Shown here: piece after piece, positions 1,268-17,382 of the stretch | How the letters are laid out: every line of letters begins with the position of its first letter | Position numbering within the stretch: position 1 is the first letter of the stretch | Assembly: GCA_022572525.1 (NCBI GenBank) | Contig: JACZVS010000001.1 | Coordinates: 1-29,562, forward strand | Reading direction: 5' to 3' | DNA from: Nanobdellota archaeon | Lineage (GTDB): Archaea; Nanobdellota; Nanobdellia; Pacearchaeales; UBA12030 | DNA: 29,562 bases | The notes under the pieces: generated by a model | What the model was told of the DNA's origin: nothing | Seen by the model: the letters and a program-made list of their open reading frames with translations, nothing else | Databases searched by the model: none | Program-made: the position numbers and the translations under genes

Positions 1268-1377
1268 GCCTCGGTAGCTCAGTGGTAGAGCGCACGGCTG
1301 TTATGCCCTTTTGGAAAAAGCTCAACCAAAAGTAAGCAGAGACCGTGAAGTCGGCAGTTCGAGTCTGCCCCGGGGCG
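1268..1377 (+). tRNA. tRNA-Asn(GTT) with 38-nt intron at 37/38 (intron 1304-1341)
   Basis: Acceptor GCCTCGG/CCGGGGC, D arm GCTC/GAGC, anticodon stem CACGG/CCGTG, T arm GGCAG-TTCGAGT-CTGCC; central BHB helix CTGT/GCAG with 3-nt bulges TA|T and AG|A; no encoded CCA. Confidence 0.95.
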
Positions 1378-1379
1378 TG

Positions 1380-1454
1380 GGTCCCGTGGCTCAGTCTGGT
1401 TAGAGCGCTACACTGATAATGTAGAGGTCCTGGGTTCAAATCCCAGCGGGACCA
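1380..1454 (+). tRNA. tRNA-Ile(GAT)
   Basis: Acceptor GGTCCCG/CGGGACC, anticodon arm CTACA-CTGATAA-TGTAG, T arm CTGGG-TTCAAAT-CCCAG; no encoded CCA. Confidence 0.96.
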
Positions 1455-1844: not shown

Positions 1845-2192
1845 CTACTCAACTTTCGCGCCTTCTTTACATTCTTTCTCAGGCTGCAGGAGAATAACTT
1901 TCTGTTCCTTTCCTTTTGAATCTCGCTCAACAGCTGCAAGCAACATTCCCTGACTTTCAACTCCTCTAAGCTTTGCAGGCTCGAGATTCGTGAATACGAT
2001 TATCTGCTTGCCTTCCAGCTCTTTTTCATTGTAGAAATCCTTAATGCCAGCAACAATTTGTTTCTCTTCAGAACCAATATCTACCTTGAGAACAATAAGC
2101 TTATCTGCATTTGGATGTAGCTCTACAGATTTAACTCGAGCAACTCTGATATCGAGCTTCTGCCAATCTTTGAATGAAATTTTTTCCGTCAT
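1845..2192 (-). CDS. Stand-alone tRNA-binding OB-fold protein (MetRS C-terminal domain / Trbp111 / CsaA family)
   Basis: DWQKLDIRVARV, HPNADKL, KQIVAGI, FTNLEPAKLRGVESQGMLLAA; ATGA overlap with metG. Confidence 0.92.
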   Translation of the reverse strand: MTEKISFKDWQKLDIRVARVKSVELHPNADKLIVLKVDIGSEEKQIVAGIKDFYNEKELEGKQIIVFTNLEPAKLRGVESQGMLLAAVERDSKGKEQKVILLQPEKECKEGAKVE

Positions 2193-3661
2193 TTTACCTT
2201 TTTGAATAGAACATCAGATTTTTTAATCTTTATGCTGCCAAGCAGGCCAAATTTTGTTCTTTCAAGAGAGATCTTTTTTTCCTTTAACCTATTAAGGATT
2301 TCTTCAGAAGCTTCCGGAATGAAGGGATGTAAAAGAATGGAGGCAACTCTTAAAGAATCTGCGATTGTGTAAAGTGCTTTGTTGAGTTCTTTTCCTTTTA
2401 ATTGCCATACCTTCTTCTCCTGTATATACTTATTGCATTCGTCTACAAATTCAATGATTAGATGGAGTGCTTTGTCTAACTCATAATTGTCGAGCTTCTT
2501 TTCTATCTCTTTTAGTTTGAGCTTTCCTATAAGCCTTTTGTCTGGAGTTGTTTTTTTAATCTCCCCTGCCTTTTTTGCAAGGCCTTCTAATCTGCTTACA
2601 AGATTACCTAGCTTGTCTGCCAGTTCGTTATTCCTTTCTTTCAAGCCTTCTTCTGAAAAGTCTCCGTCTTCTCCGAAGACAATATCTTTTAGAATGTAGT
2701 ATCTAAGAGCATCTGCCCCATATGTTTCTACTAGTTTGATTGGGTTGATTATTCTTCCAGCCGCCTTACTTAACTTTTCTCCTTTTAGATTAATGAAACC
2801 ATGAACAAGAACTGTTTTTGGCAGCTTTATTCCTGCTGATGATAGCATAGATCCCCAAATCACAGTATGGTGCCACAGAATGTCTTTTCCAATTAGATGA
2901 ATGTCGGCAGGCCAATATTTCTCGAAAGTTTTTGTTTTGTAATCTATTCCACTTAGATAGTTGATGAGAGCATCAAACCAAACATAAATTGTATGCTTTT
3001 TGTTAAAAGGAACTGGAATTCCCCATTTAAGGGGAGTTCTACTTACACTTAAATCCTTGAGGCCATCTTTTAGCCTATTTAGGATTTCCGCCTGTTTATG
3101 TTTTGGAAGAATAAAGTTTTTATTTTTCTTTATATGCTCTATAATCTGCTTCTCATACTTACTCATCTTAAAGAAATAGCTTTCTTCTCTTACCTTCTCA
3201 AGAGGCTTTTTATGAGTAGGGCATTCTAAGTTCAGAGAGTCTTTCTCAAGATAGAAAGTTTCGCAGTCTATGCAGTAAAGACCTTCATACTCTCCCTTGT
3301 AGATATCCCCTTTTTTGTTTACTTTCTCTAAGATGGCTTGAGCAACTTTTCCATGAACTTTTTCAGTAGTTCTTATGAATCTATCATTTGAGATGTTTAG
3401 AACCTTGCAAAGATTCTTGAACTTTTTCGACATTTCATCAACAAATTCTTGAGGACTCTTCTTAGCCTTTTTAGCAGCTCTTTGAATCTTTAAGCCATGT
3501 TCATCTGTTCCTGTTAGAAAGAATACGTCGTATCCCTGCAAGCGTTTCCATCTGGCTATGCAGTCAGCACAAATCTTCTCATAAGCATGTCCTAAGTGGG
3601 GTGCAGAGCTAGGATAATCGATTGCAGTTGTGATGTAAAATGCTTTGTCTTTGGATATCAT
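2189..3661 (-). CDS. metG: Methionyl-tRNA synthetase (short form, single Zn knuckle)
   Basis: YITTAIDYP, HLGH (HIGH), LTGTDEHG, CIDC...CPTH, YVWFDALINY, GKDILWHH, KLSKA (KMSKS). Confidence 0.97.
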   Translation of the reverse strand: MISKDKAFYITTAIDYPSSAPHLGHAYEKICADCIARWKRLQGYDVFFLTGTDEHGLKIQRAAKKAKKSPQEFVDEMSKKFKNLCKVLNISNDRFIRTTEKVHGKVAQAILEKVNKKGDIYKGEYEGLYCIDCETFYLEKDSLNLECPTHKKPLEKVREESYFFKMSKYEKQIIEHIKKNKNFILPKHKQAEILNRLKDGLKDLSVSRTPLKWGIPVPFNKKHTIYVWFDALINYLSGIDYKTKTFEKYWPADIHLIGKDILWHHTVIWGSMLSSAGIKLPKTVLVHGFINLKGEKLSKAAGRIINPIKLVETYGADALRYYILKDIVFGEDGDFSEEGLKERNNELADKLGNLVSRLEGLAKKAGEIKKTTPDKRLIGKLKLKEIEKKLDNYELDKALHLIIEFVDECNKYIQEKKVWQLKGKELNKALYTIADSLRVASILLHPFIPEASEEILNRLKEKKISLERTKFGLLGSIKIKKSDVLFKKVK

Positions 3662-5202: not shown

Positions 5203-5314
5203 TGCGCTAACCGGGAGTCGAACCCGGATATTCAGCTTTTTCCTTTCCTTCTTTGTGGAGCTTCTTAAGAAGGCCCTTGGGAAGCTGACATCTTAGCCAT
5301 TGGATTATTAGCGC
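5203..5314 (-). tRNA. tRNA-Gly(CCC) with 40-nt intron at 37/38 (intron 5238-5277)
   Basis: Reverse strand: acceptor GCGCTAA/TTAGCGC, anticodon stem TCAGC/GCTGA, loop TT-CCC-A|intron|A, T arm CCGGG-TTCGACT-CCCGG; BHB central helix TTCC/GGAA; no encoded CCA. Confidence 0.93.
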
Positions 5315-14410: not shown

Positions 14411-14446
14411 AGAGAGAACCTTTTAGAAAAGGTTCATCAAAAAGAA
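14411..14446 (+). repeat. Palindromic interspersed element, copy A (occupies predicted 5' UTR of antiporter)
   Basis: AGA-GAACCTTTT-AG-AAAAGGTTC core (AGAGAGAACCTTTTAGAAAAGGTTCATCAAAAAGAA); TTTTTATA box at 14380-14387. Confidence 0.8.
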
Positions 14447-15505
14447 ATGTTTCCGAGTTTATGGATATCCCTTATTGCTTTAATTATCTCACTTGCTGTA
14501 TTAGTTAAGGGAGCAGATTTGTTTTTAGGTGCCGCCTCAAAGATTGCAAAGCATTTTGGAATTAGTGAATTTATTATTGGCTTGACCGTTGTTTCTGTCG
14601 GCACTTCTCTTCCGGAACTCGCAACCGCTATCACAGCATCTTTTGCAAAGACCCCTGAAATAATAATGGGTAATATTATTGGAAGCAATATTGCTAATAT
14701 TGGTTTAGTTCTCGGCATAACATTAATTTTTGTAACTGTTCTAATAAAGAAGCACGAATTTGATAGAATTTATATTATGCTGCTCTCTATTCTTTTATTT
14801 GCACTTTTTGCATCTGATCTTCAAATCTCAAGATTTGAAGCTGCGATCCTGCTGGCCTCCTTCCTATTGTATTTTGGTGGCTTCTTTAAGGTGAGAGAGA
14901 AGATTAAGCATTACAAACAATATTTTTCTTCTGCACTTGAATTAAGGGGCCTTCTCAGTTTAAAAAAACTGAGAGAGATAAGAGCGGCAAGGAAAAAAAT
15001 GCATGCTGGCGAGAGAATTTCCAAAAAGCTAGCAAGAGAGGCATATCTCTATGAAATGGTTAGAGAATCTGCAGTATTGGTAGCCGGAATTGTTCTTATT
15101 ATAGTAGGATCAAAGTTCACAATAGACTCTGCAGTTGATCTAGCCTTCTTCTTAAATGCTCCACAAGTAATAGTCGCTGCTTTGCTCATAGCTGTCGGCA
15201 CTTCTCTTCCAGAACTTTTTGTTAATCTTACCGGCATCAAGAAAGGCTACACAAAGATGGTTCTCGGCACTATTCTCGGCTCCAATATTTTTAATATCTT
15301 AGCAATAATAGGAATCGCGGGGATAATTAGTCCTATAGCTATTACAAAATCAACGCTAACGTTCTTGATTCCAGCCATGCTGATCTTTTCCTTTATACTC
15401 TTCTTTATCTTAAGGAGAGGTCACAAGATAGGAAGAATGGAGGGAATTTCTCTTACAGTACTATATGTGCTCTTCTTGCTAGGGCTCCTTTCCTCTTCCT
15501 TCTAA
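14447..15505 (+). CDS. Ca2+/cation antiporter, CaCA family (YrbG-like)
   Basis: Two alpha repeats GTSLPE followed by GNIIGSNIAN and GTILGSNIFN; ten hydrophobic segments. Confidence 0.93.
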   Translation: MFPSLWISLIALIISLAVLVKGADLFLGAASKIAKHFGISEFIIGLTVVSVGTSLPELATAITASFAKTPEIIMGNIIGSNIANIGLVLGITLIFVTVLIKKHEFDRIYIMLLSILLFALFASDLQISRFEAAILLASFLLYFGGFFKVREKIKHYKQYFSSALELRGLLSLKKLREIRAARKKMHAGERISKKLAREAYLYEMVRESAVLVAGIVLIIVGSKFTIDSAVDLAFFLNAPQVIVAALLIAVGTSLPELFVNLTGIKKGYTKMVLGTILGSNIFNILAIIGIAGIISPIAITKSTLTFLIPAMLIFSFILFFILRRGHKIGRMEGISLTVLYVLFLLGLLSSSF

Positions 15506-15671: not shown

Positions 15672-15682
15672 AATTGAGGAAA

Positions 15683-16381
15683 ATGCCAGAAAGTTTAGAA
15701 CGACTTGTGGAAGAGCATAAAAAATTAGATGCTCTTATAGGGGATGTTGAGCGAGAGCCATTTAATCCTGCTGTTGGAAATAAATTGAGAGCACTTTATG
15801 TTCATAATGCCGTTACAGATGCTGAAAATCTAGAAGCTGCTGCTGCAGCTACAATGGTAGTTGACAACTATGATGACAGAGAATTTTATGGACAGGTTTA
15901 TACTTTGCGTGGAGAAAAACAAAGAGAAATAGCCGACTCTGCAGAAGCAGATGCTGACAAGATTTACAATTCCCTTCCTGATGAAGCTCTTACTGGATTA
16001 GCAGCCAATGTATTGCCAGTTCCTAGTGATGGGGAGGCAGCTGAAGCTCATAGATCATATAGAAAAGTAAGTGACACACTTCAGGAAGGAAATGGAGAAG
16101 TGATTATAAAATACTTGAAGACTCTTCTTAAGGAAAGTTTCGTAGATGCCTTGGATGCTGATCGCCTTAAACTAGCTTATGGTGGAGTTGTATCGGTAAA
16201 ACGAGCCGAATTTTTGTCTAAGTTCGCAGGAAATGGTGGATTGGATCGTAGCAAAATTGTAGATTACTTGAAGAGTGTAAGAGCTGCAGGAGATGCTGAT
16301 AGGTTACAATTCTACTTTAGTCTAGGAATGGCTGCAGGAGATGCTGATAAAGAACAAAACCTGCATCTAGAAGCAGCTTAG
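15683..16381 (+). CDS. Orphan Ala/Asp/Glu-rich helical protein
   Basis: 232-aa ORF from ATG 15683 preceded by GAGG; followed by T-tract. Confidence 0.75.
   Translation: MPESLERLVEEHKKLDALIGDVEREPFNPAVGNKLRALYVHNAVTDAENLEAAAAATMVVDNYDDREFYGQVYTLRGEKQREIADSAEADADKIYNSLPDEALTGLAANVLPVPSDGEAAEAHRSYRKVSDTLQEGNGEVIIKYLKTLLKESFVDALDADRLKLAYGGVVSVKRAEFLSKFAGNGGLDRSKIVDYLKSVRAAGDADRLQFYFSLGMAAGDADKEQNLHLEAA
16283..16349 (+). repeat. Perfect 19-bp in-frame direct repeat (GCTGCAGGAGATGCTGATA at 16283 and 16331)
   Basis: Read directly; encodes AAGDAD twice, 16 codons apart. Confidence 0.9.
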
Positions 16382-16433: not shown

Positions 16434-16472
16434 AGAGAGAACCTTTTTTCTAAAAAGGTTCATTAAAAAGAA
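16434..16472 (+). repeat. Palindromic interspersed element, copy B
   Basis: AGAGAGAACCTTTTTTCTAAAAAGGTTCATTAAAAAGAA, near-identical to 14411-14446. Confidence 0.85.
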
Positions 16473-16475
16473 GGT

Positions 16476-16508
16476 CCTTTTCTTGGTTAAGCTTCTTTTC
16501 CAAAGAAG
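16476..16508 (-). repeat. Palindromic interspersed element, copy C (matches tRNA-Asn intron core)
   Basis: Reverse strand CTTCTTT-GGA-AAAGAAG-CTTAACC-AAGAAAAGG. Confidence 0.75.
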
Positions 16509-16509
16509 A

Positions 16510-17382
16510 TCATTCCTCAAGAGCTCTTACAAGCTTTGCCATTTCGCCTACAAATGAATCTACCCTATCGATGTATGCATCGATAGTTGATCCTTTTATT
16601 ATCTTGACTTCTCCATGAAGAATTTTGTGCATTAATGTGTACATTTCGCGGTAGAGATCAACATATCTCTTTTTCAGTTTTTTCTCTTTTGTAAATGTTT
16701 CATAAAGCAAGAAGGCAATGTGCTCTGGAGATGGAGGGGGTTTTCCTGCTGCCATTAAAGCTGCATGTGATGAGTCTACACATGCCCAGTAAAGGCCTTC
16801 TATTACAGCGAGCATCGATGTTCTACTTCTTGCAATATGTGCAGGACTTCTTCTTAGAGCAACATAAATAGCTTCTGGCGAAGGTCTTATCTTCCCTCTT
16901 TGCAGTAAAATTTTGAGTGGAGTGAAAAAGCCTCCAAAATCAATTAATGGCTCGCCGTAACGAATAATATTTATCACAACAGGCTCTCCTCTTATCATTT
17001 CCTCCCACCATGTTGTTAATCTTACTGTGTTTATGTGCAATTTTTTCGCATAACTTTGCGAAGCAACAAGGATTGCAAGCTCTTCTCGATACCAAGCAAC
17101 CATTTCAGCTGTCCAATCAACATTTGCATCATCAACAATTACAATGATGTCGATGTCACTTTTATGAGCTGCAGTTCCTTTAACTTGCGAACCAAATAGA
17201 ACTATGCTTTTAATGACTTCTGCACTAAATCTCTTGTAAACTTTAGCTGCAAAATCTTCAGCAATTCTTCTTTCAGGAGTTATTCTTCCAATAGGCTTTT
17301 CAACTTTCCTAACTCTTGGTTTTGAATGTGTACGCCTTTTTTTACTAATGATCTTTGCCCTTGCCCCTTTTTTCCTTCTCAT
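16510..17382 (-). CDS. Nucleotidyltransferase + HEPN-like fusion, paralog of 10706-12520
   Basis: LFGSQVKG-x5-SDIDIIVIVDD; LYWACVDSSHAALMAAG; shares LLQ.GKI.PSPEAI with the 604-aa protein. Confidence 0.82.
   Translation of the reverse strand: MRRKKGARAKIISKKRRTHSKPRVRKVEKPIGRITPERRIAEDFAAKVYKRFSAEVIKSIVLFGSQVKGTAAHKSDIDIIVIVDDANVDWTAEMVAWYREELAILVASQSYAKKLHINTVRLTTWWEEMIRGEPVVINIIRYGEPLIDFGGFFTPLKILLQRGKIRPSPEAIYVALRRSPAHIARSRTSMLAVIEGLYWACVDSSHAALMAAGKPPPSPEHIAFLLYETFTKEKKLKKRYVDLYREMYTLMHKILHGEVKIIKGSTIDAYIDRVDSFVGEMAKLVRALEE

Follow-up and report, generated by a model that had tools for sequence, protein, structure and literature searches.

Contig C38 of the source assembly, analysed here over its full length of 29,562 nt (the window), contains four tRNA genes identified by Rfam, two of which carry insertions of ~40 nt in the anticodon loop. 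The assembly is a metagenome-assembled genome of a DPANN archaeon that comprises 579 kb (0.58 Mb) in 100 contigs, with 37% G+C and 76% completeness. We refer to this source genome as G000 and to four other genera of the same family as G001-G004; genomes with further numbers belong to other families of the same order. Environmental runs X1-X4 are DNA metagenomes from marine water and marine sediment, with X3 and X4 from marine sediment; a search for RNA runs listed DNA metagenomes only. The features of the window that are discussed below are collected in Table 1. The window also includes an ORF of 271 aa (385-1200) for which there is no Pfam match; this ORF has a repetitive Gly/Glu-rich end, and X1 and X3 carry a variant with a 21-nt in-frame deletion at position 1138.

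Table 1. Features of the window related to the tRNA introns and the repeat.
Feature	Position	Strand	Description
tRNA-Asn(GTT), intron-bearing	1268..1377	+	Rfam tRNA (57 bits) whose anticodon loop holds a 39-nt insertion; ARAGORN run with introns gives a 38-nt intron at 37/38
tRNA-Asn intron	1304..1341	+	38 nt: linker of 3-4 nt, repeat core and 9-nt tail (ARAGORN; sequence)
Repeat core	1307..1332	+	Pyrimidine arm CCTTTT, loop GG, purine arm AAAAA, box GCTCAACC, second purine arm AAAAG (model matches)
Intron tail	1333..1341	+	GCAG (1336-1339) pairs with CUGU of the anticodon loop as the central 4-bp helix; AG and A38 form the 3' bulge
tRNA-Ile(GAT)	1380..1454	+	2 nt 3' of tRNA-Asn; without an intron in G000 (Rfam)
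tRNA-Gly(CCC)	5203..5314	-	40-nt intron at 5238-5277 with a divergent copy: arms CCTTCTT / AAGAAG / AAGAAGG, box CTCCAC
Intergenic copy, box GGTTCATC	14412..14448	+	Ends at the ATG of the Na/Ca-exchanger gene 14447-15505
Intergenic copy, box GGTTCATT	16438..16474	+	57 nt beyond gene 15674-16381(+), in convergent orientation to the copy at 16475-16511
Intergenic copy, TTCTT arm type	16475..16511	-	Begins right after the stop codon of the nucleotidyltransferase gene 16510-17382(-), sense to that gene; E=0.016

The coordinates and sequences that a first-pass annotation, made from the DNA letters alone, had given for the tRNA-Asn intron are correct, and ARAGORN gives the same positions. Excision of the intron produces a canonical 74-nt tRNA-Asn cloverleaf according to Rfam, ARAGORN and a strict splice-motif search. 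Based on the sequence and on the strict search, the intron residues GCAG form a splice-site helix in which C32 pairs with G, U33 with A, G34 with C and U35 with G, and the bulges are UA/U and AG/A. The 4-bp helix is thus flanked by two 3-nt bulges, and the outer helix of the motif is the 5-bp anticodon stem. No inner helix was found in the sequence immediately adjacent to the 5' bulge, so the motif corresponds to the relaxed hBH form. The minimum-energy fold of the intron pairs CUUUUGG with CCAAAAG. One PF01974 gene for a splicing endonuclease, an ORF of ~200 aa, is present in each of the genomes G000-G004. By sequence criteria, the insertion in tRNA-Asn is an archaeal bulge-helix-bulge tRNA intron.

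Introns occur in five of the 25 tRNA genes of the G000 assembly. Four of these introns, in Asn, Lys(CTT), Pro(CGG) and Gly(CCC), measure 37-40 nt and follow a common plan, which consists of a short linker, a pyrimidine arm, a loop of 2-3 nt, a purine arm, an 8-nt box, a second purine arm and a tRNA-specific tail; the box reads GCTCAACC, GTTCAATC or CTCCAC. When the Asn and Lys(CTT) introns were compared by eye, ~28 of 32 positions were alike over the linker and core, and the Asn intron of G000 is closer to this Lys(CTT) intron than to its own orthologs. ARAGORN calls the latter tRNA (G000:C43:3967-4077) Pyl(CTA) with an intron at 36/37; with the intron set at 37/38, the loop CUCUUAA is that of tRNA-Lys(CTT), and only three of four pairs form in the central helix. 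The Gly(CCC) intron gave a weak HMM match (E=4.6). At this gene, a contig from X3 joins position 5235 to 5276 and thereby omits exactly 40 nt (5236-5275); this allele could be intron-less or intron-replaced, and other letters may lie between the two sides.

The core shared by these introns also occurs outside tRNA genes as a repeat of ~30 nt, in which a pyrimidine arm and a complementary purine arm enclose a short loop and are followed by an 8-nt box with the consensus GYTYMAYC and a second purine arm. An HMM seeded with eight intergenic copies, all on contigs other than the window, matched the Asn intron (1306-1332) with E=3.3e-6, the Lys(CTT) intron with ~3e-6, the Pro intron with 0.05 and the reverse-strand intergenic copy (16482-16511) with 0.016. 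We also used a sequence-only covariance model, R1, built from 21 intergenic copies with zero introns in the seed; this model matched the Asn intron (1306-1337) with E=3.1e-6, the Lys(CTT) intron on C43 with 4.1e-6 and the Pro(CGG) intron with 2e-4. The claim of the first-pass annotation that the core of the Asn intron belongs to an interspersed repeat is therefore upheld by a model made from intergenic copies only, and it is stronger than first claimed. The two related copies that it had placed at 14411-14446 and 16434-16472 lie at 14412-14448 and 16438-16474; they represent a sub-type with the box GGTTCATY that is also found in sister genomes, and both belonged to the R1 seed, which makes their own E-values circular. 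An iterative, sequence-only nhmmer search ended at 14 members, having stalled because arm lengths vary, and a fuzzy search of G000 identified >20 intergenic copies.

Although ORFs make up ~90% of G000, none of its 24 matches at E≤1e-3 falls in real coding sequence, and 16 of the 17 copies between co-directional genes are in sense orientation. Some copies fill the entire spacer of ~40 nt from a stop codon to the next ATG (L23/L2 and L24/S4e), another typical site is between the TATA box and the ATG of rpoN, and others occupy the first bases 3' of tRNA ends (two Ala, two Leu and one Lys). Many copies stop 5-25 nt short of an ATG, which places a T/A palindrome ~24-30 nt upstream of it, as at leaderless genes. 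The arm and box design of the copy at 16475-16511 is near-identical in the tRNA-Asn and tRNA-Phe introns of G002, and strains in X1, X3 and X4 differ from the window at this copy by several small indels. Contig C21 of G000 ends within a repeat copy immediately 3' of tRNA-Lys(TTT) (C21:1-30), and repeat copies may add to assembly fragmentation and to missing tRNA genes in these genomes. Behind tRNA-Arg (G000:C47:2781) and tRNA-Phe (G000:C50:15103), an ORF starts 7 and 11 nt past the tRNA 3' end, respectively; this leaves no room for a promoter and suggests tRNA-mRNA co-transcripts, the processing of which would yield nearly leaderless mRNAs.

The second purine arm of the repeat varies together with the pyrimidine arm and the first purine arm. 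Purine arm 1 has an internal G close to the box in 31 copies, and in every one of them purine arm 2 has a G at the mirrored distance, with two A's between G and box in 28 copies and three A's in 3. A 2x2 test of the commoner type gave 2e-21 (Fisher), a value to be read in light of the copies not being independent, given their shared descent. The informative arm cores (TTCTT / AAGAA) are symmetric, so a mirror (triplex-type) arrangement and Watson-Crick pairing of arm 1 with arm 3 are inseparable. Of the two, the Watson-Crick alternative appears in the minimum-energy folds of the introns, in which arm 1 pairs with arm 3 and GG pairs with the CC of the box.

Searches of G001-G004 with R1 yielded 28-60 matches per genome at E≤1, and the best of these were mostly inside tRNA genes. 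Among the 91 copies parsed across G000-G004, 39 are tRNA introns, and all intron copies that were read across the five genomes are in sense orientation. In this lineage, the over-representation of the element in tRNA introns is massive, and it includes non-canonical intron positions. In the sister genomes, the host genes include iMet, Asp, Phe, Cys, Trp, Met, Arg, His, Gly and Ser tRNAs, among others; D-loop introns with copies occur in Val and Leu, and others are in the T-loop as read by eye. One sister-genome tRNA has two such introns, and some introns contain two tandem copies. Members in the D-loop, in the T-loop and at 37/38 are present across G001-G005. In the strict splice search, which required a 4-bp helix, 3-nt bulges and a flanking helix, ARAGORN accepted the spliced product of 20 copies as a tRNA. 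These include ~10 clean introns at 37/38 with the 5-bp anticodon stem as outer helix, clear D-loop introns in Val and Leu, two more calls at positions 21 and 25 and a few doubtful ones.

A covariance model and a scan of related DPANN genomes had been proposed as a check on the family. At E≤1e-3, R1 gave 8-24 matches per genome in the five genomes of the family and 0-4 in other families among the 61 genomes of the order that were surveyed. There were zero matches in 47 of the 56 genomes from other families of the order, which serve as a natural control. Seven outside-family matches were read, and all seven are real copies, of the type AAAC-TTTT...AAAA-GTTT(C/A)ATC-AAAA; two are in tRNA introns (one of these tRNAs has a second copy in the T-loop), one is in a tRNA trailer and four are intergenic. 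The genuine copies in other families indicate that the repeat design is old and was amplified in the family of G000-G004.

Orthologous sites differ in whether they are filled. The L24/S4e spacer contains a 36-nt copy only in G000, whereas the spacer is between a few and ~13 nt long in G001-G004. The L23/L2 spacer has a copy in G000 and G002 and none in G003 and G004, and the contig of G001 ends there. Upstream of rpoN, G000 and G003 have the same canonical TATA box, but only in G000 is it separated from the ATG by a copy; in G002, a copy lies between a conserved TATA box and tRNA-Asn. Among the introns, G003 and G004 have the D-loop intron of tRNA-Val, which G000 and G002 lack, and a tRNA-Ile intron (44 nt, a degenerate copy) is found only in G001. 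Filled and empty sites were compared at S4e, L2 and rpoN for the terminal inverted repeats and target-site duplication of a MITE; the flanks are too A-rich for a duplication to stand out clearly, and the only inverted repeat is the internal hairpin.

Filled sites also differ in what fills them. The arms of the Asn intron are plain T/A in G000, TTTCTT in G001 and TTCTTT in G002. The tRNA-Leu(TAG) trailer has different sub-types in G000 and G002, as does the site upstream of adk in G000 and G001. At the junction of tRNA-Ala(GGC) and HIT, copies of differing sub-types are found in G000, G003 and G004, and a degenerate relative is found in G002. Some sites, including the tRNA-Ala trailer and the iMet and Asp introns, are filled in three or four genera, and the box persists across the order; occupancy of this breadth and retention of the box over order-level divergence also fit a conserved functional element. 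Translation of the preceding gene runs through the copy upstream of adenylate kinase (G000:C5:3052-3102; G001:C41), so that the copy encodes the C-terminal tail of a Cys-x2-Cys protein; the corresponding protein of G004 has another tail and no copy.

The nearest neighbour of a copy is from the same genome in 34% of cases, compared with 21% expected, a value that 20 of 500 shuffles reached. This similarity within genomes points to replacement or conversion among copies in addition to insertion. Intron copies are nearest to other intron copies, with the observed value reached by 0 of 500 shuffles, and a GG loop is present in 22 of 39 intron copies but in only 5 of 57 others (hand count). These systematic differences between intron and non-intron copies suggest that exchange between the two compartments is limited, and that they are related but partly separate.

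With regard to the origin of the Asn intron, the first-pass annotation had suggested a search for sister genomes with an intron-less tRNA-Asn. Such genes were found outside the family, in G014 and apparently in G010 (contiguous matches); within the family, however, G001 and G002 have short introns, and the tRNA-Asn of G003 (L004:1820-1965(-), G003:C16) has a group I intron, a self-splicing type, at the same site in the anticodon loop (RF00028, 60.4 bits, E=3e-13), which is cut by the contig end. In another family, the tRNA-Asn of G019 has a 9-nt mini-intron. We do not count this mini-intron as evidence of homology, since pairing with the anticodon loop dictates its CAGA tail.

The tail TAAGCAGAG, the last 9 nt, is common to the introns of G000 and G002, and their cores are of different sub-types. 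Moreover, a contig from X4 encodes a tRNA-Asn with a 21-nt intron in which the last 12 nt are identical to those of the G000 intron and the hairpin and box core are absent; this allele is represented by a single low-depth contig. Taken together, the X4 allele and the shared tail with differing cores suggest that the core colonised, or was turned over inside, an older short intron. The repeat thus probably colonised, and was later replaced in, a pre-existing short intron of tRNA-Asn, although deletion of the core in the X4 lineage could equally explain the X4 allele. It had been proposed that the element seeds tRNA introns by insertion. The presence of the family in introns and the gain and loss at orthologous sites agree with this proposal, and seeding of the D-loop and T-loop introns by the repeat is plausible and the obvious hypothesis; for the Asn intron, the 21-nt allele and the shared tail point instead to an older intron whose core was colonised or turned over.

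Family membership, distribution, orientation bias, presence and absence at orthologous sites, within-genome similarity and arm co-variation are directly supported. The explanation that we favour, with a probability of roughly 0.55, is a lineage-specific, non-autonomous repeat of ~30 nt that is copied into, and homogenised among, transcribed non-coding sites, with the Asn intron as a composite. In this composite, the 3' tail builds the splice helix with the anticodon loop, and the centre is a member of the repeat family. The repeat would be copied in sense orientation into tRNA introns (canonical, D-loop and T-loop), into the bases behind tRNA 3' ends and into gene spacers or 3' ends. A copy in a tRNA gene would be harmless because the splicing endonuclease would remove it along with the intron; such removal would make introns a safe haven, and most introns of the G000-G004 family are built around a copy. 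We infer that the repeat entered a pre-existing short intron in tRNA-Asn, that it seeds new introns at non-canonical sites and that its copying is tied to transcription. Counting against this explanation, neither a Y1 transposase nor a reverse transcriptase was found consistently across the five genomes, which are 73-83% complete. Only tentatively would we add that transcription-linked copying spreads a three-arm hairpin through transcribed non-coding DNA of these archaea, and that a copy in a tRNA loop may be spliced out at once, provided that a few flanking bases pair.

Several other readings of the repeat have to be weighed against this one. The arms are runs of T and A in a genome with 37% G+C, and AT-rich hairpins of low complexity might match by chance; given E-values of ~1e-6 from intron-free models, a conserved box and the lack of any match in 47 of 56 equally AT-rich genomes of the order, the probability of chance is negligible. 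It is unlikely, but well short of negligible, that the repeat is a conserved cis-element of the host, such as an RNA 3'-end, stability or processing signal or a protein-binding site, with the copies being similar through one shared factor and not through copying. Such an element would account for the position of copies, which start at or just past stop codons or the 3' ends of tRNAs, for their sense orientation relative to the gene before them, which holds even in the convergent gap 16438-16511, for the persistent occupancy of the tRNA-Ala(GGC)-HIT junction and for a box and three-arm design that are kept across the order with compensatory arm changes. However, the short L24/S4e and rpoN spacers of relatives evidently function without a copy, a gene-end signal has no obvious role in D-loop, anticodon-loop and T-loop introns, copy number differs sharply between related families, and one copy is translated as the end of a protein. 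Excised introns are circularised in archaea, and a quite unlikely alternative is that introns came first, with circular introns ligated into other transcripts and copied back to DNA, so that intergenic copies would be escaped introns. The strict sense orientation in both compartments is a prediction of an RNA intermediate; the targets are transcribed, often highly (tRNA genes and the spacers at rpoN and ribosomal-protein genes), copies in introns group with one another, and all five genomes encode the splicing endonuclease. Among these genomes, which are 73-83% complete, a reverse transcriptase was found only in G001 and G003 and hence not in G000, which argues against this route, as do the position of the splice-site tails outside the shared sequence and the frequency of bulge-helix-bulge motifs at intergenic copies, which shows no excess (56%, compared with 59% with shuffled flanks). 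Based on the same comparison, made with a permissive criterion that has a background of ~60%, we rejected the idea that intergenic copies are hidden introns.

The repeat could also be a promoter cassette of the lineage (BRE/TATA plus initiator region), and introns that contain it would then have an internal promoter. The position of the T/A palindrome relative to the ATG at many copies suits this reading, and the palindrome of G000 at the tRNA-Ala-HIT junction corresponds in position to a canonical TATA box in G002. There is also a precedent in Aeropyrum pernix, in which the tRNA-Asp 'intron' holds a promoter and the gene was interpreted as a tRNA that split recently (Chan, Cozen and Lowe 2011, PMC3218864). 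As in that tRNA-Asp, a class of sequence that is usual upstream of genes sits in sense orientation inside a tRNA intron; unlike in A. pernix, the repeat fails the genome's BRE/TATA matrix, and the introns are 37-47 nt long with an intact cis splice motif. Using a matrix from 22 tRNA promoters of G000, we obtained medians of 11.4 bits for promoters, -0.4 for intron copies and 2.2 for other copies, and only ~10-12% of copies scored above the genome's 95th percentile. Furthermore, rpoN retains its canonical TATA box upstream of the inserted copy, and copies also occur in the convergent gap, where there is no gene to drive. The matrix and the rpoN site rule out a canonical promoter as the general explanation, and we regard the promoter reading in any form as very unlikely. 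Three related ideas were also rejected: an intron promoter that drives the downstream gene, since the genes after the Pro and Lys tRNAs have their own TATA boxes (by eye); split tRNA halves, since a start ~25 nt past the palindrome would be at the 3' splice site, with no leader left to pair with the 5' half; and an efficient terminator, since intron copies have T-runs as long as those of intergenic copies (T4-T7) and would abort tRNA synthesis.

The first-pass annotation knew of no description of such a link between introns and repeats. Families of similar introns in different tRNAs, ascribed to 'intron transposition', have been published for Thermoproteales (Fujishima et al. 2010, Mol Biol Evol 27:2233, as summarised in PMC4090602), which limits that claim to novelty; these families served as a positive control in bioRxiv 10.64898/2026.10.13.758758, and according to the review PMC4090602 it is not known how such introns are transposed. 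The other part of the claim stands to the extent that our literature search, which left subscription journals mostly uncovered, found no paper that ties tRNA intron families to intergenic repeats. As with the transposed introns of Thermoproteales, similar introns are found here in tRNAs of different identity within one genome (Asn and Lys are close, and Pro and Gly have the same design), and their presence varies among close relatives, as at the D-loop of tRNA-Val. The present case differs in that the hosts are DPANN archaea with genomes of 0.6-0.9 Mb and the shared part is the intron core only; in addition, judging from the papers found on Thermoproteales, it differs in that copies of the core are also plentiful elsewhere than in tRNA genes, namely in spacers and tRNA trailers and at the 3' ends of genes.

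Like the bacterial REP, REPIN and BIME elements, the repeat is a palindromic, extragenic, multi-copy sequence of ~30 nt with lineage-specific sub-families, gain and loss, and a location in intercistronic and 3' regions. Unlike those elements, which are mobilised by RAYT (Y1), it does not as a rule form inverted doublets, its orientation follows transcription, and copies occur inside tRNA genes as introns; a Y1 transposase (PF01797) was found only in G001 and not in G000, G002, G003 or G004, with these genomes being 73-83% complete. To our knowledge, bacteria cannot tolerate repeat copies as introns of tRNA genes. Compared by description, intrastrand-triplex-type repeats (PIT/BoxC-like) share the pyrimidine arm, the Watson-Crick purine arm, the mirror-placed second purine arm and the 8-nt connector; here, however, the arm cores are symmetric, and ordinary pairing between arms 1 and 3 is an equally good explanation of the pattern.

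The family is a rare case in which archaeal tRNA introns can be linked visibly to dispersed repeats. In this lineage, most tRNA introns share their core with an intergenic repeat, and filled and empty sites are found among close relatives; together, the repeat and these sites supply a pool of donors, a time series and specific alleles with which the arrival of introns in archaeal tRNA genes can be studied. There is also a practical consequence, in that such introns, above all those in D- and T-loops, escape standard tRNA finders: the Rfam gathering scan fails to recognise tRNAs with D-loop or T-loop introns, and ARAGORN mis-assigns them.

Downstream of the tRNA-Asn and tRNA-Ile genes, the window encodes a methionyl-tRNA synthetase (2189-3661, reverse strand) with 74% identity to metagenome-assembled genomes labelled Nanoarchaeota and ~50-56% identity to Woesearchaeota/Pacearchaeota. 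The protein is also ~50-54% identical to sequences of CPR bacteria (Nealsonbacteria, Parcubacteria and Saccharibacteria), which makes these as close as many of the archaeal matches, and this likeness may reflect transfer between ultra-small lineages.
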